From the NCBI GenBank assembly GCA_963851265.1, contig CAWKNZ010000002.1, forward strand, positions 192,001 through 256,000: a stretch of 64,000 nt of DNA, given 5' to 3'. The DNA is from an uncultured Gemmatimonadales bacterium (GTDB taxonomy: Bacteria > Gemmatimonadota > Gemmatimonadetes > Gemmatimonadales > Gemmatimonadaceae). The position numbers and the translations under genes were made by a program. Below the pieces are notes generated by a model. That model worked only from the letters and a program-made list of their open reading frames with translations, was not told where the DNA came from and searched no databases. This document shows positions 34,163 to 49,404 of this stretch, piece by piece. The number at the start of each line of letters is the position of its first letter. Positions within the stretch are counted from its first letter, which is position 1.

Positions 34163-35401
34163 ATGGATGCCACAACAACCTCGGATGCGACACCGCAATC
34201 CGCCACCCCACAGACTCGGCACCTACGGCGCGACATCGTCGTGATCGGTGCTTCGGCCGGCGGGGTCGAGGCCCTCAAGGCTGTCGTCGCCGCACTCCCG
34301 GCGGACTACCCCGGGTCCGTTTTTGTGGTCCTGCACATCCCGCCGAGCGTGCCGAGCGTGCTCGCCGGCATCCTCGGCCGGGCGGCATCCCTTCCGTGCG
34401 TCAACGCCACGGACGGAGCGCCCGTGCAGCCGGGCAGGATCTACGTCGCGCCTTCCGACCGCCACCTGTTGCTCGAGCCGGGCCGCATGCGCCTGGTGCC
34501 CGGCCCGCGCGAGAACGGCCACCGCCCCGCGGTCGATCCGCTCTTCCGTTCCGCGAGCGCCGCGTACGGCCCGCGCGTGGTCGGGGTGGTGCTCACCGGC
34601 AACCTCGACGACGGCACGCGCGGGCTGTTGGCCATCACCCAACAGGGCGGGCTCGCCGTGGTGCAGAGTCCGGACGAGGCCAACTTCCCCGGCATGCCGT
34701 TGAGCGCGATCGCGAACGTGCCCGTGGACTACGTGCTGCCGATGACGGACATCGCCCCGCTCCTCACGGCCGAGGCCGATCCCGCGCGCGACGCGATCGC
34801 CGCCGACGGGGCGCCATCGGATTCGAACGACACGGCGCCTCACGCGACGACGCCCAACGGGACGGCCCCGAATGGCCGGAGTGAGACGAGACCCAGTGTG
34901 CCGCCTCCGATGCGGACGACCCCCAACGGCGCCATACCGAACGGACTTCCGGTCGCGCCCGCGCCCACGCCCGCGCCCGCGCCCACGCCCGAGCGCGTCG
35001 CGGAGCTCGAAACGGGCATCGGCGTCGTCAACGGCGGCAGCCTGATGAACAAGGCACTCGGCGGGACGGTGTCGGAGTTCACCTGCCCCGACTGCCACGG
35101 CGCCTTGTGGGAGTTGCGCGACGGGGCGCTCGTGCGCTACCGCTGCCGCGTCGGCCACTCGTACACCGACCAGGGCCTCGTCGACAACAAGGCGCGATCG
35201 GTCGAGGACGCGCTCTGGACCGCGCTCACGGCCCTCGAAGAGAGCGCCGCGATCGCCGCCCGGGTGGCCGAACGGGCCGCCGAGCAGGGGCGCTCGCGCA
35301 GCGCCGCGGTGTTCCGGCTTCGCGCCGAGTACCTCGAACAGCGCGGCGCCCTGCTGCGCGACGTGCTGAACGACCTCCCCGCCCACGTGGACGGCATTTG
35401 A
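34163..35401 (+). CDS. cheB: CheB-type methylesterase (no receiver domain) with C-terminal CPxCxG...CxxGH extension
   Basis: GASAGG (Ser), VLHI (His), RPAVDPLF.S, LTGNLDDG (Asp), Pro-rich linker, FTCPDCHG.LW...YRCRVGH. Confidence 0.88.
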   Translation: MDATTTSDATPQSATPQTRHLRRDIVVIGASAGGVEALKAVVAALPADYPGSVFVVLHIPPSVPSVLAGILGRAASLPCVNATDGAPVQPGRIYVAPSDRHLLLEPGRMRLVPGPRENGHRPAVDPLFRSASAAYGPRVVGVVLTGNLDDGTRGLLAITQQGGLAVVQSPDEANFPGMPLSAIANVPVDYVLPMTDIAPLLTAEADPARDAIAADGAPSDSNDTAPHATTPNGTAPNGRSETRPSVPPPMRTTPNGAIPNGLPVAPAPTPAPAPTPERVAELETGIGVVNGGSLMNKALGGTVSEFTCPDCHGALWELRDGALVRYRCRVGHSYTDQGLVDNKARSVEDALWTALTALEESAAIAARVAERAAEQGRSRSAAVFRLRAEYLEQRGALLRDVLNDLPAHVDGI

Positions 35402-37422
35402 GCGACCCCGATCCGCCGCGCGCCGTGACGTTTCCGCCCGATCCCGGGCTCGATTTCGACCTGCTGCTGGCCTATTTGCGGGCGACCCGCAGTTTCGAGT
35501 TCAGCGGCTACAAACGTGTGGGACTCGCGCGCCGGATCGGCAAGCGGATGCGGGCCACCGGCTCCGCGACGTACGCCGCGTACCAGGAGTACCTCGACGC
35601 GCATCCGTCCGAGTTCGCCGAACTGTTCGACACGATCCTCATCAACGTGACCGCCTTCTTCCGCGACGAGTCGCTCTGGGAGCACCTCCGCGCCGAGGTC
35701 GTGCCGCAGCTGCTCGCGGCGCGCGGCGGGTCCGACCCGATTCGCGTGTGGTGCGCCGGATGCGCGACGGGGCAGGAGGCATACACGCTCGCCATCGTGC
35801 TCGCCGAGGCGATGGGCGACGACAAGTTCCGCGAGCGCGTGAAGCTCTACGCGACCGACCTCGACGAGGACGCGCTCGCCACGGCGCGGCAGGGCGTCTA
35901 CCAGGAGCGGGACGTCGCCGCGCTGCCGCCCGACCTCGTCGAGCGCTACTTCGAGCGTGACGGGCAGCGCTACGTCTTCCGCAAGGACCTGCGGCGCCTG
36001 CTGATTTTCGGGCGGAACGACCTCATGCAGGACGCGCCGATCTCGCGCATCGACCTGCTGACGTGTCGCAACACGCTGATGTACTTCGACGCGCCCACGC
36101 AGGCGCGCGTGCTGGCGCGCTTCCAGTTCGCGCTCAACGACGGCGGCGTCCTCGTGCTCGGGCGCGCCGAGACGCTGCTCACCCACACCAACCTGTTCGT
36201 CCCCGTCGACCTCAAGCGACGCGTGTTCGTCAAGGTGCCGCGCTACAACGCGGTGTCCGGGGCGTCCGGCGTGGTCGCCAGCCCATTCCGGTGGCGCGAC
36301 CGGTCCTCGGGCGCGACATACGGTCCCGGCGAGGGGCCCGACCGTGGGCTCGACGGCGAACTGCGCGACGCGGCGTTCGACGCGGGGCCGATCGCGCAGC
36401 TCGCGATTGACCGCACCGGGCGCCTCCTCGCCATAAACGAGCGCGCCCGCGCCCTCTTCCAGCTGGGCCAGCCCGACCTCGGTCGCCCGCTGCAGGACCT
36501 CGAAGTCTCGTACCGCCCGTTCGAGCTGCGTTCGCTCATCGACCAGGCGTTGAGCGAGGGGCGCCCCATCGTGAACGGCGAGGTGCCGTGGCGTGCGCCC
36601 GGCGGCGAGATGCGCTGGTTCGACATCCGCGTCGTGCCGCTCATCGCGCCCGCCGAATTCGGCGCCACCCCAGCGCCGGCCGGCGCGGGGGTGAGTGCGA
36701 CGTTCATCGAGGTCACGCGCTACAAGCAGCTGCAGCATCAGGTGCAGGAGGCGCAGGCGGAGCTGGAGGCCGCGTACCAGGAGCTGCAGAGCACGAACGA
36801 GGAGCTCGAGACCACGAACGAGGAGCTGCACTCGACCGTCGAGGAGTTGGAGACGACGAACGAGGAGCTGCAGAGCACGAACGAGGAGCTCGAGACGATG
36901 AACGAGGAGCTCCAGAGCACGAACGAGGAGCTGCAGACCATCAACGACGAGTTGCGCCAGCGGAGCGAGGACCTCAACCGGGCCAACGCGTTCCTCGAGT
37001 CGGTGTTCGCGAGCATGCGCGCGGGGGTGGCCGTGATCGACCGCGACCTGCGCGTGCTGTCGTGGAGCAACCTCGCCGAAGATCAGTGGGGCGTGCGGGC
37101 CGGCGAGGTGGTCGGCACGAGCTTCTTCAACCTCGACATCGGCCTGCCGGTCGAGCGGCTGGCCGAGGCGATCCGCGCGTGCCTGGCCGGCACCGCCGAC
37201 GCGCAGGAGCTGGTCCTCGGCGCGACCAACCGGCGCGGCCGCGCCACGCAGTGTCGCGTCAGCGTCCGGGCGCTCGCCGACCCGGGCGAGAAGCGCCCGC
37301 GCGGCGCGCTGATCCTCATGGAAGAGCTGCCTAACGAAGTGGGGGCGGGCGCCGCACCGCGGGGGGAGCCGGCCGCCGCGGCCCCGGCGGGCGCGGACGG
37401 GGCCGCGGCCCCCGAGGGCTGA
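35398..37422 (+). CDS. cheR: CheR-type methyltransferase fused to PAS, heptad coiled coil and PAS
   Basis: TTGA overlap; INVT.FFRD, W.AGCATG.EAY, ATDLD, CRNTLMYF, LG.AE; PAS; (STNEELE/Q)n; second PAS. No kinase domain. Confidence 0.9.
   Translation: MSDPDPPRAVTFPPDPGLDFDLLLAYLRATRSFEFSGYKRVGLARRIGKRMRATGSATYAAYQEYLDAHPSEFAELFDTILINVTAFFRDESLWEHLRAEVVPQLLAARGGSDPIRVWCAGCATGQEAYTLAIVLAEAMGDDKFRERVKLYATDLDEDALATARQGVYQERDVAALPPDLVERYFERDGQRYVFRKDLRRLLIFGRNDLMQDAPISRIDLLTCRNTLMYFDAPTQARVLARFQFALNDGGVLVLGRAETLLTHTNLFVPVDLKRRVFVKVPRYNAVSGASGVVASPFRWRDRSSGATYGPGEGPDRGLDGELRDAAFDAGPIAQLAIDRTGRLLAINERARALFQLGQPDLGRPLQDLEVSYRPFELRSLIDQALSEGRPIVNGEVPWRAPGGEMRWFDIRVVPLIAPAEFGATPAPAGAGVSATFIEVTRYKQLQHQVQEAQAELEAAYQELQSTNEELETTNEELHSTVEELETTNEELQSTNEELETMNEELQSTNEELQTINDELRQRSEDLNRANAFLESVFASMRAGVAVIDRDLRVLSWSNLAEDQWGVRAGEVVGTSFFNLDIGLPVERLAEAIRACLAGTADAQELVLGATNRRGRATQCRVSVRALADPGEKRPRGALILMEELPNEVGAGAAPRGEPAAAAPAGADGAAAPEG
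36760..36960 (+). repeat. 21-nt-period coding repeat (about 8 heptads, ELQSTNE/ELETTNE)
   Basis: Recurrent acgaacgaggagct units inside cheR. Confidence 0.85.
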
Positions 37423-38031: not shown

Positions 38032-39168
38032 TCAAGGTCGCAACGGCGGAGCGGCGGTTCGCGTTCCCCGCGCCGGTTCGGCCGGCGTGCTCACGATGCT
38101 GAATACGCCACCCACGCCGCGCGGCGTGGTGGGATCGAGCACTGCACTGTACGACGAAACCGTCATGAATTCGTCGCCCTGCGCGTCGAGGTCGGTGCCG
38201 TCATGGTGTTCGGCCCACACGGTTTGGCGCGTCCGCGCGACGCGCTCGCACGTCGCCACCGCGACCCGCCCCGCACGCGAGCGCGTCTGCCGTGCCGAGC
38301 GCCCGAGATGTGTTTGACGCGCGGTCCCACCGCGTCGGGAGAACGCCGCGTCGTTGGAGATCTCGACGAGTTGGGCGCCCCAGTAGATCGACATCGGCAC
38401 GTGCGACGTGAGCGCGACGCGCACCACCGTCTGCAGCGCGACCGACCACCCCAGCACGGGGCCGAGGGGTGTGGCCGCCCAGTCGACGTCGGCCAGCAGC
38501 GGGCCGACCCGTGCCGCCCCCGGGCCGGTGAACAGGGCCGCGCCCGCGGCGAGCTCCGCCCCTGACCGGGGCAGCCGCCCGCCGCCCGCGACGAGCACGA
38601 GCACCGCACCGATCTGCGCGAGCGGCAACACGAGATCGATCGCGCCCGTCGCCGTCGCCGCGAGCGGCATCGACGGGTAGCGCGACGACTCGGCCGATTG
38701 CGCGAGGACCGTCGCCCCGGCGCGGCTGAGGGCCTGTACGCCCGCCGCGCCGTCGCGCCCCATCCCCGTGAGCACCACGGCGAGCGCCCGCGCGCCGAAC
38801 GCGGCGGCGAGACTCTCGAACAGCAGGTCGATCGGCAGGTCCGTTGCGCGCCGCACGCCCTCGCGCACCGCGCACGTGCCGTCGCGGCGCACCTCGACCT
38901 GGCGCTGCGGCGGGCACACGAACACGCACCCCGGCGTCAGCTTGGTCCCGTCGGCGACCCACGTCACCGACAGCCGGCTGTGCGCGGCGAGCATCTCGAC
39001 GAGCGCACTTCCGTAGCGCCCCAGATGCTGCATGACGACCACCGCCGCGGGGAAATCGGCAGGAAGCGCCTCCAGCACGGCGCGCAGCGCCTCGAGGCCG
39101 CCGGCGGAGGTGCCCACGGCGACGACGTCGTACCGAGAGGAGGGTCGCGTTGCCGTCACGGTAGGCAC
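38032..39168 (-). CDS. cheB: Second CheB-type methylesterase with C-terminal PAS-like domain
   Basis: GTSAGG, QHL, PIDLLF.SLA, LTGMGRDG, SMP; then DW.ATPLGP..W...L...V......PM..YWG.....NDA. AGGAG precedes the GTG start. Confidence 0.82.
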   Translation of the reverse strand: MPTVTATRPSSRYDVVAVGTSAGGLEALRAVLEALPADFPAAVVVMQHLGRYGSALVEMLAAHSRLSVTWVADGTKLTPGCVFVCPPQRQVEVRRDGTCAVREGVRRATDLPIDLLFESLAAAFGARALAVVLTGMGRDGAAGVQALSRAGATVLAQSAESSRYPSMPLAATATGAIDLVLPLAQIGAVLVLVAGGGRLPRSGAELAAGAALFTGPGAARVGPLLADVDWAATPLGPVLGWSVALQTVVRVALTSHVPMSIYWGAQLVEISNDAAFSRRGGTARQTHLGRSARQTRSRAGRVAVATCERVARTRQTVWAEHHDGTDLDAQGDEFMTVSSYSAVLDPTTPRGVGGVFSIVSTPAEPARGTRTAAPPLRP

Positions 39169-40430: not shown

Positions 40431-41105
40431 TCACGCGACAGCGCCCAGCACGAGCCCGGCGAGCGCGTCGAAGTTGTCGACCACGTGGTCGGCCGCGGCG
40501 ACCACCGCGTCGCGTCGTGCGAAGCCGGTGAACGCGGCGAGCGCGTCGCACGCGCCGGCCCCGCGCAGCGCGAGGTCGGTACTGCCGTCGCCGCAGCCGA
40601 GCGCCGGACGGGCCGCCACGCCCCAGGCGGCGAGCACGCCGCGCGCGACGTCGCCCTTGCCGCCCTGCGTCGCGAGCAGCGACCCGGCGTCGTAGGCGAA
40701 GTACGCGCCGCCCATGTCGAACACCACGTCCACCGCGTACACGTCGGCCGGGGCGAAGCCGAGGCTGCGGGCGAGTGGAAGGATGGCCTGGCGGAGCCCG
40801 CCGCTGACGAGGGCGATGCGCACTCCCCCCGCGCGCATGCGCTCGAGCGCGTCGGCCGCACCGGGCGCGAGCGCCGCCTGGTACGCGGCGGCCAGCGCCT
40901 CGCAGTCGCCGCGGTCGGGGCGAACGCGCGCGAGCCGCTCGCCGTACACGGCGTCGAGGGCGAGATCGCCGCGCATCGCGCGCTCGGTCGCCTCCGCGAC
41001 CGCGGCGGCCGTCGCGGCGCCGCGCCGTGCGGCAAGCCAGTCGATCCCTTCGACGCCGGCGAGGGTCGAGTCGACGTCGAGCAGGAGCGAGGGGTAGCGC
41101 GGCAT
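40431..41105 (-). CDS. serB: HAD-IB phosphatase (phosphoserine phosphatase-like)
   Basis: DVDSTL...EGID, T.RAM.G, VSGG, K and GDG.TD motifs. Confidence 0.8.
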   Translation of the reverse strand: MPRYPSLLLDVDSTLAGVEGIDWLAARRGAATAAAVAEATERAMRGDLALDAVYGERLARVRPDRGDCEALAAAYQAALAPGAADALERMRAGGVRIALVSGGLRQAILPLARSLGFAPADVYAVDVVFDMGGAYFAYDAGSLLATQGGKGDVARGVLAAWGVAARPALGCGDGSTDLALRGAGACDALAAFTGFARRDAVVAAADHVVDNFDALAGLVLGAVA

Positions 41106-41229
41106 GCGGTCGGGAGGCGGTGGGGAGGAGCGTCGGAACGAACCGTCCCCGGGACGGCCGCGCAACGCCGACGCGGGCGACCCCGCCGCGCGCCCCGCGC
41201 CGGAGCAACACTTTCGGGAACTCGCGCGT

Positions 41230-41243
41230 TTACTGGCGAGTAA
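41230..41243. promoter_or_regulatory. Inverted repeat TTACT-GGCG-AGTAA, candidate TetR operator
   Basis: AT-rich dyad in the divergent intergenic region, about 115 bp upstream of the TetR-TolC start. Confidence 0.5.
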
Positions 41244-41356
41244 GCCTGCGTAACGATGGCGCAAACTCCGGCCACTCGCGGGTTGGATGCCGTTTTCATA
41301 CCGACTGGCCGCCGCGCCTCGACCGGCCGCTCTTCTCGAGTCCGACTATTCGACCG

Positions 41357-43954
41357 ATGGACCTTTCCCGCCCGGACGGGCGATCCGACGCGCTGCCCTG
41401 GCAGGAACGGCAGCGCCGGATGCGCGAGACGGCGATCCTCGATGCCGCCGCCACCCTGCTCGCCGAACGCGGGTACGCGGCCACGAGCATGGACGAGATC
41501 GCCGCGCACGTCGGCATTTCGAAGCCGACGCTCTACCAGCACTTCCCGAGCAAGGACGCGGTCGCGGTGGCCGTGATGCTGCACCGGCTCGGCCACACGG
41601 CGGCGGACATCGCGTCCGCCGAGCAGGCCGTGGCCGAGGGCGAGCGCGCCCGCCCCCAACTGGAGCGGGTGCTGCGCGACGCGCTCGCGCGCCGGGCGGG
41701 CGCGTGGTCCACGCGTGTGGAGCTGCCACGCTCCGTGGTCGACTCGGCGCCCGAGGTGGGCATCGCGCGTCGCGACGTGTGGGCCCGCATCGGCGCCCTC
41801 GTCGACCGTGCCAAGGCCGAAGGGGACTGCCGCGCCGACGCACCCACGCCGGTGATCGCGCGGCACCTCGCGGGGCTGTTCCGTGGTGATTACTCCGATC
41901 TCGTCGATCAGGGCGCACCGTCCGAAGCGCTCGCGGCGACGCTCGTCTCGCTCGTCTTCGACGGCCTCGCGCCGCGCCAGCCCGCGGCCGATCCGCACGG
42001 CGCCGACCCGCACCTTGCCGAGGCGTCGGCCGCGGGCGCGCGCCTCGGCGTGCGGCGGGTCGCCCGGCGCGCGTCGGTGCTGTTCGGAATCGTCGCCGGC
42101 GCGTACGCGCTGACGCCCGGCGCGGTGCGCGCCCAGCAGGCGCCGGTGCTCCCCGCCAGCGTTCCGGCGTCCGCCGGGGCACCCACGCCGGCGCCGCTGC
42201 CCGTTCCCGGGGCGACCCGCTCGGCTGACGATCCGCCGGCGTCGGGCCCGCTCCCCGTGCCGCCGCTCGACAGCAGGGCGCCCATCGGCGCGCCGAGCAC
42301 CGCCGCGCGCGTGATCGGGCCGCAGCCGTTGTTCCCGCAACAGGTGCCGAGTCAGACCGAGATCGTGCCCGGCGTCCCGACGCAGGCCGGCGGCCGTGCG
42401 CCGGGCGCACCGGCCACGCCCGCGGGACTCGCCGGCCGTGCGCTGACGCTGGCCGACGTGCTCGATGCCGCCCTGCGCGCCAACCCGTCGACGTTCGCCG
42501 CGTTCGCCAGCGCACAATCGTCGCGCGCGCAGTTCCTGTCGGCGCGGGCGGCCTCGTTCCCGGTGCTCTCGTTCAACCCGGGCATCACGCGCTCCCAGTC
42601 GCTCGGCATCGCGGGTGGCGGGATCTCCACGGGGACGCTTCCCGGGAACGGCACCGGCTCCGGCACCACCGGGACCGGCACGACCGGGACGGGCGGCGCG
42701 GGCACGGGCACGACCGGCACCGGCACCGGGGGCAGCGGGACGGGCACCACCGGCACCGGCACGGGCACGACCACGGCGACCACCGTGGTCGGTTCGGCGG
42801 TGACGCAGCGGACGTCGTTCACGCCCGCCATCGGGCTCACCTTCCTCGCCTTCGATTTCGGGGGGCGCGCCGGACAGATCGGCAGTGCGCGTGAGACGGC
42901 CAACGCCGCGGGCGCGACGCTCGACGCGACCATCGTCAACACGCTGCTGCAGGCCGAACAGGCGTACTTCGGCTATCAGAGCGCGCGGGACGTCGTGGTC
43001 GCGTCGGAGCAGAACGTGCGCACGGCGACGTCCAGCCGCGACGCGTCGGTCGCGCTCTTTCGGGCCGGCCTCGCCACCGTGGGTGACACCCTTCAGGCCG
43101 CGACGGCGCTCGCCCAGGCGCGCGTCAACCTGCTCAACGCCCGCCAGAGCCTCTCGCAGTCGCGCGACACGCTGGCCACGGTGATCAACGCCCGGGCGGA
43201 CGTGCCGTTCGCGGTGGCCGCCGAGCGTGCGCCCACGGGCACCGCGGCGACGTCGGTGACCTCGCTGCTCACGGCCCGCGTCGACACCCTCGTCGCGCAC
43301 GCCGTGCGCACGCGCCCCGACGTGGACGCGATGCGCGACCAGGCGCTCGCGGCGCAGCAGCAGGTGCGCACGGCGCGCTCGGCGCTGCTGCCCGCCGTCA
43401 CCGTCACCGGCACCGCCGGCTACAACCAGATCTACGGCGGCGTGGCGCCCATCAACGGGATGACCTACAACATCCAGCTCGGCCTCTCGGTCCCCGTGTT
43501 CGACGGCGGGGCGCGGCGCGCGTCGCTGCAGGCGGCCAACGCCACCGCCGACGCCGCGCGCGCGCGGGCCGACGCGATGACGACGCAGGCCGTCAACCAG
43601 GTGGTCGCGTCGGCGGAGGTGCTCAAGGAGAGCGCGGACCGCCTCGCGGCCAACGAGACGCTGCTCGCGACGGCCGAACGCAACGCCGAGGTGGCCGCGG
43701 GCCGGTACCAGGAGGGCGTCGGCACGATCGTCGACCTCCTGAACGCGCAGACCACGCTCGCCACCGCGCGTTCGCAGCTCGCCCAGGCGCGCTGGGCGTG
43801 GACCACGTCGCTGGCCCAGCTCGCGCGCAACGCCGGCATCCTCGGCCTCCGCGGGGAGCTCCCGGCGGTCGTGGCTCCGGCCGTCCCGACCTCGACCCCG
43901 CTCTCGGCCCCGCCCGCGGCCGCGCGCGCCTCCAATTCCGATCCGTCCCGGTAA
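41357..43954 (+). CDS. Single ORF: TetR regulator fused via an internal signal-peptide-like segment to a TolC-family outer membrane efflux protein
   Basis: ILDAA..L.AERGY..TSMDEIA..VGISKPTLY.HF.SK (TetR); RRVARRASVLFGIVAGAYALTPGAVRA-QQ; then LTL.DV...AL.ANP, FDFGGR, RPD, LS.PVFDGG and RY..GVG...DLL.AQ (OEP). No stop codon in between. Confidence 0.85.
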   Translation: MDLSRPDGRSDALPWQERQRRMRETAILDAAATLLAERGYAATSMDEIAAHVGISKPTLYQHFPSKDAVAVAVMLHRLGHTAADIASAEQAVAEGERARPQLERVLRDALARRAGAWSTRVELPRSVVDSAPEVGIARRDVWARIGALVDRAKAEGDCRADAPTPVIARHLAGLFRGDYSDLVDQGAPSEALAATLVSLVFDGLAPRQPAADPHGADPHLAEASAAGARLGVRRVARRASVLFGIVAGAYALTPGAVRAQQAPVLPASVPASAGAPTPAPLPVPGATRSADDPPASGPLPVPPLDSRAPIGAPSTAARVIGPQPLFPQQVPSQTEIVPGVPTQAGGRAPGAPATPAGLAGRALTLADVLDAALRANPSTFAAFASAQSSRAQFLSARAASFPVLSFNPGITRSQSLGIAGGGISTGTLPGNGTGSGTTGTGTTGTGGAGTGTTGTGTGGSGTGTTGTGTGTTTATTVVGSAVTQRTSFTPAIGLTFLAFDFGGRAGQIGSARETANAAGATLDATIVNTLLQAEQAYFGYQSARDVVVASEQNVRTATSSRDASVALFRAGLATVGDTLQAATALAQARVNLLNARQSLSQSRDTLATVINARADVPFAVAAERAPTGTAATSVTSLLTARVDTLVAHAVRTRPDVDAMRDQALAAQQQVRTARSALLPAVTVTGTAGYNQIYGGVAPINGMTYNIQLGLSVPVFDGGARRASLQAANATADAARARADAMTTQAVNQVVASAEVLKESADRLAANETLLATAERNAEVAAGRYQEGVGTIVDLLNAQTTLATARSQLAQARWAWTTSLAQLARNAGILGLRGELPAVVAPAVPTSTPLSAPPAAARASNSDPSR
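42644..42784 (+). repeat. Gly/Thr low-complexity coding repeat inside the TolC domain
   Basis: GNGTGSGTTGTGTTGTGGAGTGTTGTGTGGSGTGTTGTGTGTTTATT. Confidence 0.85.
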
Positions 43955-45222
43955 TGCGCCCGTTCGATCGTTCGTTTCGTCGTACCACGTTCGCGGCCCT
44001 GCTCGCCGCGGTCGCCGCGAGCGGCTGCCGCAAGGAACCGCCGCCGCGGCCCAAACCCGCCGTGCCGGTGACCATCGCCCAGGCGATCAGCGGGAGCCTG
44101 CCGATCACCTTCGCCACCAACGGCACCGTCGAGCCGACGCAGACCGTGGCCATCCAGCCGCAGGTCGCGGGGCCGATCACCGAGGTGCGCTTCCAGGAAG
44201 GCGACGAGGTGCGCGCGGGACAGGTGCTCTTCGTCATCGACCCCCGGCCGTATCAGGCGGCGCTCGCGCAGGCCCAGGCGGTGCTCGCCCGCGACCGCGC
44301 GACCGCCACGGCCACCCGCGCCGACTCGGCGCGGTACGCGTCCCTCGTCAGCAAGGGGTTCGTGACGCAGTCGCAGGCCGGACAGTTCGCCGCCAACGCG
44401 ACGGCCGCCGGCGCGACCATCGCCTCCGACCAGGCGCAGGTCGACGCGGCACGCCTCAACTTGAGCTACGCGACCATCCGCGCGCCGATCAGCGGGAAGA
44501 CCGGTAACCTCAACGTGCGGCTCGGGAATCAGGTGCGCGTGCCCAACACCGTGCCGCTCGTGACGATCAACGCGGTCGCGCCGGTGCTCGTCCGCTTCCC
44601 GGTGCCCGACCGCGTGCTGCCCCAGGTGCGCGCGGCCCAGCGCGAGAAGCGCCAGCTCGACGTGACCATCGCCGGCGCGGTCGTGAACGGCGCCGTGGAG
44701 CGCGGCACCGTCGACTTCATCGACAACGCCGTCGACACCACCACCGGTTCGGTCACGCTCAAGGCGCGCTTCCCGAACACCGACCGCCGGCTGTGGCCGG
44801 GCGCCTTCCTCCCGCTTACCCTCGGGCTCGGCCAGACCCCGACGGGCGTGCTCGTCCCGACCGTGGCCGTGCAGGCCGGGCCGCAGGGCGATTACGTGTT
44901 CATGCCCGACTCGGCCGGGAAGACGCGGCAGGTGTCCGTTGTCACCGCGCAGTCGGCAGGAAGCGTCACCCTCGTGACGAAAGGCGTGGCGGTAGGCGAG
45001 CGCGTCGTCGTCGACGGGCAGTCGCGCCTCACGCCGGGCGCCGTCATGAAGATTGCGCGCACGGTGGCCACGCAGCCGCCGGGCAGCGCGCCCACACCGA
45101 ATGCCGTGCCCGGAAGCGCCGGGCAGGGCCCGTCCGGGCAGCCGACCGGTGCCGCGCCCGAGCGCGTCGCGGCCAATGGCGCCAACGGCACGGGCACGTC
45201 GAGCAGCACCGGCACCCCCTGA
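43954..45222 (+). CDS. RND efflux periplasmic adaptor (MdtA-like) lipoprotein
   Basis: TAATG overlap; lipobox ASGC; V.G.I..V.F.EG..V..GQ.LF.IDPRPY, IRAPISG and IDNAVD..TG motifs. Confidence 0.92.
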   Translation: MRPFDRSFRRTTFAALLAAVAASGCRKEPPPRPKPAVPVTIAQAISGSLPITFATNGTVEPTQTVAIQPQVAGPITEVRFQEGDEVRAGQVLFVIDPRPYQAALAQAQAVLARDRATATATRADSARYASLVSKGFVTQSQAGQFAANATAAGATIASDQAQVDAARLNLSYATIRAPISGKTGNLNVRLGNQVRVPNTVPLVTINAVAPVLVRFPVPDRVLPQVRAAQREKRQLDVTIAGAVVNGAVERGTVDFIDNAVDTTTGSVTLKARFPNTDRRLWPGAFLPLTLGLGQTPTGVLVPTVAVQAGPQGDYVFMPDSAGKTRQVSVVTAQSAGSVTLVTKGVAVGERVVVDGQSRLTPGAVMKIARTVATQPPGSAPTPNAVPGSAGQGPSGQPTGAAPERVAANGANGTGTSSSTGTP

Positions 45223-45232
45223 GGACTTCGCC

Positions 45233-48200
45233 ATGAATTTCGTCGCGCCGTTCATCAAGCGGCCCGTGATGACCACGCTGTTCCTGCTGTCGCTGCTCGT
45301 GGCAGGGTTCTTCGCGTGGCAGTCGCTGCCGGTGAGCGACCTGCCCAACGTCGACTATCCGACGGTCACCGTGAACGCGTCGCTCCCCGGCGCCAGCCCC
45401 GAGACGATGGCCGCCTCGGTGGCCACGGTGCTCGAGAAGCAGTTCTCGACCATCGCGGGCATCGACAACATGACCTCGTCGAGCACGCTCGGGTCGACCA
45501 GCATCACCCTGCAGTTCTCACTCGACCGCGACGTGGACGCGGCCGCGCAGGACGTGCAGGCGGCCATCAGCGCCACGCTCCGCACGCTGCCCCAAGGGAT
45601 CATCCCGCCGAGCTACCAGAAGGTGAACCCGGCGAACAGTCCCATCCTCTACGTCGCGCTGACGTCGACGACCAACCCGCTGGCCGACGTCGACGAGATC
45701 GCCGAGACGAACCTGGCGCAGCAGATCTCGACGATCAACGGCGTCGCCCAGGTGCAGGTGTACGGCGCCCAGAAGCGCGCGGTGCGCGTGCAGATGGACC
45801 CGCGCAAGCTCGCCCAGCTGCAGCTCGGCACGAGCGACGTCGCCACCGCGGTCGCGTCGCAGAGCCCCAACCTGCCGAGCGGCACGCTCTGGGGAACGAG
45901 CCGCGCGTACGTGGTGCAGGCGAACGGGCAGCTGCAGCAGGCCACCGAGTTCTCCAACCTCGTCGTCACGTACCGCAACGGCGCCCCCGTGCGCCTCGGT
46001 GACCTCGCGACCGTCGTCGAGGGCGTCCAGAACGACAAGACGGCCGCCTGGTTCGGCTCGCCCGAGCTCAACCAGCCGATGCGCCGCTCGATCACGCTCG
46101 CCATCCAGCGGCAGCCCGGGACCAACACCGTCGAGGTGGCCGACAACGTCAAGGCCATCCTGCCCAAGCTCACGGCCAACATCCCGGCCGGGATCAGCAT
46201 GAACATCATGTACGACCGCTCGCAGACCATCCGCGAGAGCGTGCGCGACGTCGAGCTGACCCTGCTGCTGACGCTCGTACTCGTCGTCGGCGTGGTGTTC
46301 CTGTTCCTCCGCTCGCCGCGCGCGACGGCCATCCCGTCGCTCGCGCTGCCGCTCTCGGTGGCCGGCACCTTCGCCATCATGAAGGTGCTCGGCTACTCGC
46401 TCGACAACCTCTCGCTGATGGCGCTCACGCTCGCCGTGGGCTTCGTCGTCGACGACGCGATCGTGGTGCTCGAGAACATCGTGCGCCACCGCGAGATGGG
46501 GAAGACGGCCATGCAGGCGTCGTTCGACGGGGCCCAGGAGGTCGCGTTCACGGTGCTCTCGATGACGCTCTCGCTCTCGGCGGTGTTCCTGCCGCTGCTC
46601 TTCATGAGCGGGATCATCGGGCGCCTGTTCCGCGAGTTCTCGGTGACGATCGCGGTCTCGATCCTCGTGTCGGGCGTCGTCTCGCTCACGATCACGCCGA
46701 TGCTCGCTTCGCGCTTCCTCAGGGACGCGCCCCCCGACGCGGCCGGCGCCGAAGGCGTGCGCACCACGGACCCCAAGACCGGCGAGCAGGCCGGCAATCT
46801 CGCGGCACCGCAGCTCGCCTCGCAGCAGCACGCGCCACAGCCGGAGCCGACGGCGACGCTCGCGCACGCGTCCAACCCGCACGCGTCGGCCGAGCACAAG
46901 GACTCGCTGCACGACGAGGCGCCGCGCCTGCTCCGCCCCATCCTCGACCTGTTCGAGCGCGGCTACGAGGCGGTGCACCGGCTCTACGAGACGACGCTCC
47001 GCTGGACGATGTTCCACCGCCCGGTGGTGCTCCTCGGCTCGGTCGGCGTGCTCGTCGGCACGTATTTCCTCTTCAAGGCAGTGCCGACGAGCTTCATCCC
47101 GAGCGACGACACGAGCTTCCTCGTCACGAGCACGCTCGCGGCGCAGGGCACCAGCTTCGAGGACATGGTGCGCCACCAGCAGCAGGCGGCGGAGCTCGTG
47201 CAGAAGGACCCCAACGTCGCGGCCTTTTCCAGCTCCGTGGGCAACGGGGGCGGCGGCAGCAACCAGGGGCGCATCACGATCCGCCTGAAGTCGCCGGCCA
47301 ACCGCGCCCTCGACGCGGACGCGGTCGCGCGCGAGTTGACGCAGAAGCTCAACCGCATCCCCGGGCTGCAGAGCTTCGTGCAGAACCCGCCGACCATCCA
47401 GATCGGCGGCCGGCAGAGCGCGGCGCTCTACCAGTTCACGCTGCAGGGCACCAACCTGTCCACGCTCTACAGCGTGTCCAACCAGCTCCAGCTGCAGCTG
47501 CAGAAGTCGCCGCTCCTGAGCGACGTGACGAGCGACCTCTTCCTGTCGAACCCGACGGCCGCCCTGGTCATCGACCGCGACCGCGCCGGAGCGTTGGGCG
47601 TCAGCGCGCAGGCCATCGAGCAGACGCTCTACGACGCGTACGGCTCGCGGCAGGTCGGCACCATCTACACGCCCACCAACCAGTACTGGGTCGTCCTCGA
47701 GCTGCAGCCGGGCGCGCAACGCGACCCGAGCGCCCTCGGCCTGCTGTACGTCAAGAGCAGCCGCGGGACGTCGGTCCCGCTCTCGTCGGTGACGACCGTC
47801 CAGGACACGGTGAGCCCGCTCTCCGTGAACCACTCGGGCCAGGTGCCGTCGGTGACCATCTCGTTCAACCTGCCCGCGGGCGTCGCGCTCGGCACGGCGA
47901 CGCAGTTCGTCCAGCGGCAGGCGGACGCGCTCATCCCCGCGTCGTCGAGCATCATCACGAGCTTCGGCGGCACGGCGCAGGCGTTCCAGTCGAGCCAGGC
48001 CGGGCTGCTCGGGCTGCTCGTGCTCGCGATCCTGGTCATCTACCTGATCCTGGGCGTGCTCTACGAGAGCTTCATCCACCCGATCACGATTCTGTCGGGG
48101 CTGCCGTTCGCCGTGTTCGGCGCTCTCCTCGCGCTCTGGATCTTCAACCAGGAGCTGTCGGTGTACGCGTTCATCGGCCTCGTGCTCCTCATCGGCCTGG

Positions 48201-48652
48201 TGAAGAAGAACGCGATCATGATGGTCGACTTCGCGGTCGAGGCCGAGCGCACGCGAAACCTCGACCCCAAGGAGTCGATCTTCGAAGCGTGTCTGGTGCG
48301 CTTCCGCCCGATCACGATGACGACGCTCGCCGCGCTCGTCGGCACGCTGCCCATCGCGCTCGGCCTCGGCGCCGGCGCGAAGAGCCGCCAGCCGTTAGGC
48401 ATCGCGGTCGTCGGCGGCCTTCTCTTCTCGCAGGTCGTCACCCTCTACGTCACGCCGGTGCTCTACACCTACTTCGACGGGCTGCAGCAGCGCTTCGCAC
48501 ACCGCAAGGCCAAGGGCACGGTCGCCCGGCCGGGCACGGAACGCGCGGACGACGACGAGCAGGGCGGGCGTGGGACGCCGACGCCGGCCCCGGCGCCGCG
48601 TCCGCAGGCTCCCAAGCAGCCGCTCCCCGCGGCGGCGGCGGTGCGCGCATGA
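45233..48652 (+). CDS. RND efflux permease (MdtB/MdtC-like)
   Basis: FI.RPV.T, LP.VDYPT, GFVVDDAIVVLENI, LYESF.HP.TIL, GLVKKNAIMMVDFA and RFRPI.MTT motifs. Confidence 0.95.
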   Translation: MNFVAPFIKRPVMTTLFLLSLLVAGFFAWQSLPVSDLPNVDYPTVTVNASLPGASPETMAASVATVLEKQFSTIAGIDNMTSSSTLGSTSITLQFSLDRDVDAAAQDVQAAISATLRTLPQGIIPPSYQKVNPANSPILYVALTSTTNPLADVDEIAETNLAQQISTINGVAQVQVYGAQKRAVRVQMDPRKLAQLQLGTSDVATAVASQSPNLPSGTLWGTSRAYVVQANGQLQQATEFSNLVVTYRNGAPVRLGDLATVVEGVQNDKTAAWFGSPELNQPMRRSITLAIQRQPGTNTVEVADNVKAILPKLTANIPAGISMNIMYDRSQTIRESVRDVELTLLLTLVLVVGVVFLFLRSPRATAIPSLALPLSVAGTFAIMKVLGYSLDNLSLMALTLAVGFVVDDAIVVLENIVRHREMGKTAMQASFDGAQEVAFTVLSMTLSLSAVFLPLLFMSGIIGRLFREFSVTIAVSILVSGVVSLTITPMLASRFLRDAPPDAAGAEGVRTTDPKTGEQAGNLAAPQLASQQHAPQPEPTATLAHASNPHASAEHKDSLHDEAPRLLRPILDLFERGYEAVHRLYETTLRWTMFHRPVVLLGSVGVLVGTYFLFKAVPTSFIPSDDTSFLVTSTLAAQGTSFEDMVRHQQQAAELVQKDPNVAAFSSSVGNGGGGSNQGRITIRLKSPANRALDADAVARELTQKLNRIPGLQSFVQNPPTIQIGGRQSAALYQFTLQGTNLSTLYSVSNQLQLQLQKSPLLSDVTSDLFLSNPTAALVIDRDRAGALGVSAQAIEQTLYDAYGSRQVGTIYTPTNQYWVVLELQPGAQRDPSALGLLYVKSSRGTSVPLSSVTTVQDTVSPLSVNHSGQVPSVTISFNLPAGVALGTATQFVQRQADALIPASSSIITSFGGTAQAFQSSQAGLLGLLVLAILVIYLILGVLYESFIHPITILSGLPFAVFGALLALWIFNQELSVYAFIGLVLLIGLVKKNAIMMVDFAVEAERTRNLDPKESIFEACLVRFRPITMTTLAALVGTLPIALGLGAGAKSRQPLGIAVVGGLLFSQVVTLYVTPVLYTYFDGLQQRFAHRKAKGTVARPGTERADDDEQGGRGTPTPAPAPRPQAPKQPLPAAAAVRA

Positions 48653-49404
48653 GCGGCTACCCGCCCATCCCGCAGCAGGTCACCCCGACGCCGGTCGTCC
48701 CCGGCGTCTGGGACCTGCCGCTCGGCATCGTCCACGCGTACCTCGTCGCCGACGGCGAGGCGCCGGACGCGCCACTCGCGCTCGTCGACACGGGCCTCCC
48801 CGGCAGCGCACCGGCCATCCTCGGCGCGGTCGCGGCCCTCGGGCGGCGTCCCGCGGACGTGCGCTGGATCGTCGCGACGCACCTGCACGTGGACCACACG
48901 GGCACCCTGGCCGAGCTGAAGCGGGCGAGCGGCGCGGAGGTGCTGATGCACCCGACCGACGCGGCGATGGTGGCCGAGGGCGCCGCGGGGCGCACGATGC
49001 ACGAATCGCCGGCGCCCGGGTCGGCGGCGTTCGTCGCGGGGTTCGACCCGCGCACGCGGCGCGTGGAGCCGTGCGCGACCGACCGCCTCCTCGCCGACGG
49101 CGACGAGTTGCCCTTCGCCGGGGGCGCGCGCGTGGTGCACGCGCCGGGGCACGCCGCCGGGCAGGTGGTGCTGCTGCTGCCGGGCCACGGCGGCGTGCTC
49201 GTCGCCGCCGACGCGTTAGGCAATCCCGGCGGCCGGCTCGGCTGGAGCGTCGGCTACGAGGACCTCGCGCTCGGTGCCGACACGGTCGAGCGTCTCGCGG
49301 GGCTCACGTTCGAGCACGCGGTGTTCGGCCACGGCGACCCGATCGTCGGCGGGGCGGACGCGCGGTTCCGACGGGCGGTGGACGAGGTGTTCCGGGCCGC
49401 GTAG
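48649..49404 (+). CDS. MBL-fold metallo-hydrolase
   Basis: ATGA overlap with the RND stop; LVDTG, THLHVDH.G, PGH, D and GHG motifs. Confidence 0.9.
   Translation: MSGYPPIPQQVTPTPVVPGVWDLPLGIVHAYLVADGEAPDAPLALVDTGLPGSAPAILGAVAALGRRPADVRWIVATHLHVDHTGTLAELKRASGAEVLMHPTDAAMVAEGAAGRTMHESPAPGSAAFVAGFDPRTRRVEPCATDRLLADGDELPFAGGARVVHAPGHAAGQVVLLLPGHGGVLVAADALGNPGGRLGWSVGYEDLALGADTVERLAGLTFEHAVFGHGDPIVGGADARFRRAVDEVFRAA

Follow-up and report, generated by a model that had tools for sequence, protein, structure and literature searches.

The best-described counterparts of the locus reported here are the AcrAB-TolC-type efflux pumps, in which a TetR-family local repressor (AcrR) and its palindromic operator go together with a membrane-fusion protein (MFP), an RND transporter and an outer-membrane factor (OMF) (PMC8277102, section 4.1). 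The AcrR-type regulator is always a separate soluble protein, and its gene, as described there, usually lies divergent to the pump genes. We analysed a 64,000-nucleotide stretch of the genome of an uncultured Gemmatimonadales bacterium (contig CAWKNZ010000002.1; hereafter the window), which carries the same set of elements. In contrast to the AcrR-type systems, the TetR of the window is the N-terminal part of the channel precursor. The locus is an ordinary tetR-OMF-MFP-RND operon whose first two genes have been merged into one.

For the maturation of such a protein the nearest mechanistic precedents are the anti-sigma factors RsiV and RsiP, which are cut by signal peptidase at site 1 and then by a site-2 protease (PMC4183432 and PMC8844934). 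Like the arrangement we propose, these regulators sit in the membrane with the N-terminus inside and lose their extracytoplasmic part to signal peptidase, so that a stub remains for intramembrane proteolysis. They differ in being anti-sigma factors with regulated cleavage, whereas the window protein joins a DNA-binding repressor to a structural channel and would presumably be cleaved constitutively; the likeness is not one of homology. RseP clears remnant signal peptides (PMC8144685). Our literature search, with supplementary files outside its range, turned up no study of a TetR-OMF fusion, nor any of bacterial polyproteins in which an outer-membrane protein follows an internal signal, and the terms 'polyprotein' and 'internal signal' are absent from the available portion of the tripartite-pump review PMC8277102.

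The fusion is genuine. A first-pass annotation of the window, made from the letters alone, had described one uninterrupted 865-codon open reading frame (ORF) with a TetR domain, a linker, a signal-like segment, a Pro-rich spacer and an OEP domain, followed by MFP, RND and metallo-beta-lactamase (MBL) genes. Translation, Pfam and NCBIfam agree on this order, and Pfam confirms the three downstream genes. TetR_N (PF00440) matches residues 27-73 of the fused protein (E 5.3e-19; 68.2 bits against a cut-off of 24), OEP matches two stretches (E 2.6e-43, 148 bits), and NCBIfam gives TolC/NodT-type matches over residues 465-829. Both halves also have structural counterparts in the PDB: TetR chains align nearly end to end with the TetR half (for example, query residues 20-209 with a 194-residue chain), and the C-terminal 506 residues match OprM, MtrE, CusC and TolC. 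The TetR half has the TetR_N helix-turn-helix and the all-helical C-terminal domain for ligand binding and dimerisation, about 200 residues in total. The channel half has the tandem OEP repeats with four strands and long helical hairpins, and the operon supplies the MFP and RND partner genes. What sets the protein apart from a soluble stand-alone TetR is that there is no stop after the domain, so that the frame runs on for 658 codons. What sets it apart from an ordinary OMF is that the signal-like segment is not N-terminal, but internal (residues 232-259), preceded by the 231 residues that make up the TetR and the linker.

An AlphaFold2 model of the whole protein, built on 13 aligned sequences, has a mean predicted local distance difference test score (pLDDT) of 60.8. 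It places nine helices between residues 15 and 200, in the TetR half (pLDDT only 40-80), a lone helix at residues 235-249, in the signal-like segment, and disorder over residues 250-360, with pLDDT about 30 in the spacer. The channel strands lie at residues 404-415, 483-496, 680-693 and 703-711, and its helices are up to 69 residues long (pLDDT 80-94). A Gly/Thr-rich insert between the strands at 404-415 and 483-496 is disordered in the model and in the family alignment is confined to P0001-P0003. This low-complexity tract of about 60 residues is seen in the closest relatives of the window only and is presumably surface-exposed.

The fusion is not peculiar to the window. Other proteins combining TetR_N with OEP, which the first-pass annotation had proposed to look for, do exist: a search of 5.8 billion clustered proteins found 14, at 52-88% identity and from four sources (ena, jgi, lgn and ncbi). 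The next channel match, at 34% identity, is unfused. With the TetR region alone as query, the long proteins found were the same 14 fused relatives and no others. Among 1.84 billion representative proteins, a profile search recovered the fused P0007 and P0052 and the fragments P0015, P0055 and P0064, all other matches being ordinary channels of about 490 residues. Some members already carry the automatic annotation 'outer membrane protein TolC/AcrR family transcriptional regulator'.

The genomes give the same picture at the level of DNA. Two of the same genus (G001 and G004) have both halves in one open frame; in G002 the junction is in frame and the frame changes only inside the Gly/Thr repeat of the channel, which may reflect an assembly error or a true variable tract; and G003 is in frame until its contig breaks. 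The complete genome of a second genus, G059, has a 699-codon open frame with both halves. Only six of the 401 genomes sampled from the family (G000-G004 and G059) have a TetR above 50% identity or a channel of 60% identity or more, and a 401-genome phylum sample held no extra fused or split member at E 1e-20 or better. Hidden Markov models (HMMs) of the two halves, run over 59 loci, found them in one frame at eight loci (from G000, G001, G004 and G059); two further loci are from G002 and one is from G003, and the 48 loci from other genera had the channel only. One of these 48, L019, has a weak 25-bit TetR match in a separate ORF, and two others, L020 and L206, come from genomes flagged as unpublished, on which none of our results rests. 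A profile scan of genome contigs gave fused loci only from G002 and G003, and a scan of metagenome contigs gave generic TetR loci only, with no fused locus. We found no stop-bearing or out-of-frame close relative among channels of at least 475 amino acids or in the 401 family genomes. A stop or frameshift between the domains in all close relatives, which the first-pass annotation had named as speaking against the fusion, is thus not what the relatives show: only one of the 21 rows of the clade described below (P0208) ends after its TetR domain.

High GC content makes such searches prone to error. The channel P0058 is spuriously extended upstream in its frame, P0013 reads through a stop region, and P0015 and P0064 are frameshifted copies of fused genes. 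Apparent TetR coverage in G254 and G051 was rejected as a spurious high-GC extension of the ORF, with no TetR HMM match; the G254 protein has a lipobox signal peptide. Further afield, three ESM Atlas clusters (54, 98 and 170 members, about 100% of them with both Pfam domains) have scores of 0.76-0.78 and serve as leads only. Their commonest phyla are Verrucomicrobiota, Gemmatimonadota and Elusimicrobiota.

Could an open junction arise by accident? The region is about 75% GC and has many long accidental ORFs. By our own arithmetic a random codon at this composition is a stop with a chance of about 0.014, and a 24-codon linker would be open about 70% of the time; an open junction in one such genome is therefore not very improbable. 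Its recurrence in 20 sequences with 12 linker lengths is well beyond chance. The start codon of the fused gene is likely to be the ATG at 41357, because GC content at third codon positions (GC3) drops upstream of it and the N-terminus that it gives is common to five same-genus genomes (G000-G004), which share the motif MD(L/V)(S/P)RP(D/E)G. The frame is open upstream as far as a GTG at 41027, with GC3 of 0.67-0.77 before the ATG against 0.87-1.0 after it. Along the fused frame GC3 is 0.73-1.0, and 0.93-0.97 over the junction.

The junction itself was compared in 20 fused sequences, 16 of them database proteins (that of the window included) and four read from genomes. In all 20 the TetR domain ends in G-(L/M)-(A/T)-P-(R/P). 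In the window this is GLAPR, and the codon directly after R207 is CAG, as the first-pass annotation had remarked. By hand count the linker and basic n-region together measure 15-34 residues (31 in the window) and come in 12 distinct lengths. There have thus been at least 11 insertions or deletions, all of which preserved the frame. Arg and Lys provide four to six of the last 12 residues before the hydrophobic stretch, and R234 and R238 are invariant in a 13-sequence alignment. An uncharged stretch of 11-25 residues follows and, by simple inspection, leads to an AxA|Q-type site. In the window the internal GTG at 42050 encodes V232, and the sequence VRA ends at residue 259 (42133), with QQ next.

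Simple inspection thus finds the features of a Sec signal peptide: a basic n-region, an h-region and small residues at -3 and -1. The geometry of the segment is that of a predicted cleavable signal, not a membrane anchor. There is no Cys at VRA|QQ, as the lipobox of NodT-type channels would require. Lipoboxes (LAGC, VGAC) do occur in the 40-49%-identical unfused channels of other Gemmatimonadaceae genera, of which we read five loci (L207, L210, L213, L219 and L197) and three database proteins (P0056 and P0060 among them); the fused lineage and its split Longimicrobiaceae sister have a signal peptidase I-type site without Cys. Export by the Tat pathway was considered and rejected: the RR pair is followed by A-S-A, not by the hydrophobic pair of the Tat consensus, and an OMF has to arrive at barrel assembly unfolded. 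Among the proteases encoded in the genome are two S26 signal peptidases and an M50 site-2 protease.

Beyond the site, the distance to the first channel helix varies with the subclade. The genus of the window has 93-146 residues there, a second subclade 45-52 and a third (G059, P0014, P0052 and P0055) 12-16. As 12-16 residues cannot span the periplasm, the short-spacer members must be cut for their channels to reach the outer membrane, an argument that we draw ourselves from OMF architecture. A motif in the Pro-rich extension, VPGVPxxAGGRAPGxPATPA, is kept in two of the three subclades and is absent from the short-spacer one.

How the two genes came together can be read from their unfused relatives. 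Stand-alone TetRs among short proteins are 36-54% identical to the TetR of the window and stop 2-28 residues after the position of residue 207. Two split operons, L232 and L231, from Longimicrobiaceae and Gemmatimonadetes metagenome-assembled genomes, resemble the window in gene order, strand and orthologous halves, with tetR adjoining the channel gene and a channel signal peptide that ends AAAQ. They differ in having a stop between the genes, where the window has none and has instead a 31-residue linker and n-region. In L232 the tetR gene (218 codons) overlaps the start of the channel gene through ATGA, MFP and RND genes come next, and the OMF, 48% identical to that of the window, has a signal peptidase I-type signal peptide (...LGAAAQG). 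In L231 the TAG of tetR is directly followed, in frame, by an ATG that opens an Arg-rich signal peptide, and this is also where the contig stops. P0210, a stand-alone TetR of the sister clade described below, is 73-74% identical to the L231 and L232 TetRs and 45% identical to that of the window. Since the L231 and L232 channels have an N-terminal signal peptide at this place, the internal segment of the fused protein is by its ancestry a signal peptide. Loss of the tetR stop, put forward by the first-pass annotation as one possible explanation, is borne out as an evolutionary origin by the single frame of L231, in which tetR, TAG, ATG and signal peptide follow one another. The ancestral tetR and OMF genes adjoined each other, probably with coupled translation.

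A maximum-likelihood tree of 34 TetR domains (midpoint root, for drawing only; the frameshifted or partial P0015, P0064 and G003 were left out, as were G068 and G122) places all 20 fused rows in one clade, with support of 100/99. Its sister clade (98/94) holds seven split, stand-alone TetR rows, L231 and L232 among them. P0208, a stand-alone TetR that is 69% identical to the fused P0052 and stops 11 residues after GLAPR, nests within the fused clade. The fewest state changes on this tree are two, most simply a single loss of the tetR stop and a later, single regain of a stop. Other genera in the family have unfused channels that are 40-49% identical; these are paralogue-like relatives and do not represent the ancestral state. 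Judged from these sequence comparisons, the fusion is real and inherited, and it arose in an ancestor of a clade of soil Gemmatimonadaceae that is Gemmatirosa-like.

Upstream of the fused gene lies a palindrome of the form TTACT-N4-AGTAA. This 14-bp sequence, TTACTGGCGAGTAA, is the only match in the window at one mismatch or fewer (0.02 expected) and the only exact match in the 4.6-Mb genome. The same TTACT-N4-AGTAA pattern stands upstream of the fused gene in G003, G004 and G059, and one-mismatch versions do so in G001 and G002. Given that the genome holds no other copy of the palindrome and that the fused relatives have it too, the TetR half is probably still an autoregulator. In the split operon L231, TTACTCGCGAGT lies just before tetR. 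Positions 3700-4000 of L232 are AT-rich with repeated AGTAA elements and have CTACT-N4-AGTCA near the start of tetR, which resemble the palindrome of the fused clade. A promoter and terminator scan of 41100-42200 found none, either upstream or internal.

We suggest that the protein is a polyprotein, inserted through its inherited signal peptide and cut by signal peptidase I, which would free the channel and leave the TetR on a signal-peptide stub; we put the probability of this at roughly 0.6. As tetR has no stop, every TetR chain is made with the signal peptide and channel attached. The TetR would fold in the cytoplasm, after which the Arg-rich n-region and the short hydrophobic segment would engage the Sec machinery as an internal N-in signal. 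The channel part would then be translocated and signal peptidase I would cut at VRA|QQ. The channel would go on to the outer membrane. A C-terminal signal-peptide stub would hold the TetR in the inner membrane, perhaps only until a signal-peptide peptidase or site-2 protease released it. The TetR would repress the operon at the unique upstream palindrome. A polyprotein of this kind had been proposed in the first-pass annotation, with the repressor tethered by the stub so as to link repression to export. The conserved in-frame fusion, the descent of the segment from a signal peptide and the short spacers make it the best-supported reading, of which the cleavage, the tether and the link between repression and export are predicted parts.

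Several observations weigh against it. The linker has pLDDT below 50, and the model is of low confidence at the junction. The nesting of the stand-alone P0208 within the fused clade indicates that the cell can do without the fusion, which may bring little advantage and be close to neutral. TetR functions as a dimer and the channel functions as a trimer, and 1:1 synthesis of the two, as the fusion would entail, is unusual for a repressor. All six genomes for which DNA was available have a GTG or ATG in frame within the linker or n-region, so that a separate pre-channel may be made as well. A search of sequencing runs returned one soil DNA run (word share 0.07) and no RNA run.

These internal codons lead to the most serious rival, which we regard as possible though doubtful. 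It holds that channel synthesis starts mainly at an internal GTG or ATG just before the signal peptide, that the full-length protein is a minor product, and that the TetR extension is useless and is degraded or still cut off. The six genomes with such a codon are G000, G001, G002, G003, G004 and G059, and most of the codons lie within a few codons of the basic n-region, the sole one in G004 being about 15 codons upstream of it. The ancestral arrangement, moreover, had an ATG of its own at that place. By hand count Val or Met occurs among the final 8-9 n-region residues in about 13 of the 20 fused proteins, but by our own estimate composition alone predicts about 11. No alignment column has a conserved internal start, and four of the 20 (P0010, P0012, P0014 and P0055) have no Met or Val at all between the TetR end and the hydrophobic segment. 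The GTG at 42050 had been described as lacking an evident ribosome-binding site, and indeed the 21 bases before it contain no GGAG, GAGG or AGGA. Apart from a weak GGAAG in G059, no Shine-Dalgarno-like motif precedes any of the internal candidates, whereas the RND gene has GAGGA. Because tetR has no stop, elongating ribosomes run through the internal site, which disfavours initiation there. Internal initiation also leaves unexplained why at least 11 insertions and deletions kept the frame.

The chain might instead stay uncut. It would then be a one-component regulator anchored in the membrane, or it would cross the envelope from a cytoplasmic TetR to a channel in the outer membrane, and it would relay the status of the envelope directly to the DNA. 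Membrane-anchored DNA-binding regulators such as ToxR and CadC exist, and the 93-146-residue Pro-rich spacer of this genus could span the periplasm. The 12-16-residue spacers of other members could not. The short hydrophobic segment leads to a conserved AxA|Q-type site and descends from a cleaved-type N-terminal signal peptide, and the split relatives function as separate proteins. We therefore consider an uncleaved tether very improbable. Equally improbable is that the fusion is a neutral accident or an artefact, a stop lost without function in a stop-poor genome or a sequencing error at the junction: a random junction would often be open, spurious extensions (P0058) and frameshifted entries (P0013, P0015 and P0064) do occur and P0208 indicates that the split state is viable within the clade, but the same junction recurs in independent assemblies from four sources and in two genera, close relatives with a stop or out of frame were not found in the searches above, all the insertions and deletions keep the frame, and n-region residues are invariant.

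If the polyprotein is cut as we suggest, repression might be coupled to export. The TetR would be born tethered to the membrane, and would be freed and active, or degraded, only after translocation, cleavage and clearance of the stub by a site-2 protease or signal-peptide peptidase. Alternatively, the stub might hold the TetR at the membrane, close to the hydrophobic pump substrates that collect there and to its own operon, which is inserted co-translationally. Such autoregulation is a speculative step beyond the cleavage itself, and we think it unlikely.

The fused gene is the first of the MFP-RND-MBL operon (Table 1). The ATG of the MFP gene overlaps the TAA of the fused ORF in the sequence TAATG (43952-43956), and the GAGGA of the RND gene lies 7 nt before its ATG. 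The MBL-fold gene directly follows the RND gene on the same strand and may belong to the operon; its true start is probably later than that of the listed ORF. Upstream, a HAD-hydrolase ORF is divergent from the fused ORF. A CheR methyltransferase-PAS fusion (35107-37422, + strand) and a CheB methylesterase ORF (38032-39168, - strand) also lie upstream of the efflux cluster.

Table 1. Positions of the fused gene, its parts and its neighbours in the window.
Feature	Position	Strand	Residues and details	Support
Palindrome TTACT-N4-AGTAA (TTACTGGCGAGTAA), probable TetR operator	41230..41243		114-127 nt before start codon	
Fused ORF: TetR, signal peptide and OMF	41357..43954	+	865 codons, sole stop terminal	
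Complete TetR-family repressor domain	41357..41977	+	1-207; ends in invariant G-x-APR	Pfam, PDB, AlphaFold2
Variable linker ending in Arg-rich n-region	41978..42070	+	208-238; contains candidate internal GTG 42050	
Signal-peptide h and c regions	42071..42133	+	239-259; predicted signal peptidase I site VRA|QQ after 42133	
Pro/Ala-rich disordered spacer	42134..42436	+	260-360; would be N-terminal extension of mature channel	
Complete TolC/OprM-type OMF	42437..43954	+	361-865	Pfam OEP, PDB, AlphaFold2
Gly/Thr-rich insert between barrel strands 1 and 2	42602..42802	+	416-482	Alignment, AlphaFold2
MFP gene	43954..45222	+	Lipoprotein signal AASGC	Pfam HlyD_D23, Biotin_lipoyl_2, HlyD_3
RND transporter gene (AcrB family)	45233..48652	+	ATG 45233	Pfam ACR_tran, E 3.1e-299
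MBL-fold gene, last in cluster	48289..49404	+	Match at residues 145-320 of listed ORF	Lactamase_B, E 8e-20

A repressor and an outer-membrane channel in one polypeptide are unexpected. The fused and split states differ in nature by one stop codon, as L231 and the window show, and so provide a ready-made comparison. The system could be used to ask how the Sec machinery and signal peptidase treat a signal that lies behind a folded domain, and whether clearance of a signal peptide releases a transcription factor. The combination of TetR_N with OEP may be a recurrent design in other phyla, the ESM Atlas clusters being a lead in that direction. If the protein is cut as proposed, it would represent a polyprotein that occurs naturally in bacteria and owes its maturation to the general signal peptidase acting on an internal signal, and its repressor would have an obligatory membrane-bound birth, with regulator and regulated product made 1:1. 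Should the coupling to export also prove true, the circuit would be a case of regulated intramembrane proteolysis in which a classical repressor is the substrate and the exported cargo serves as its own site-1 switch.

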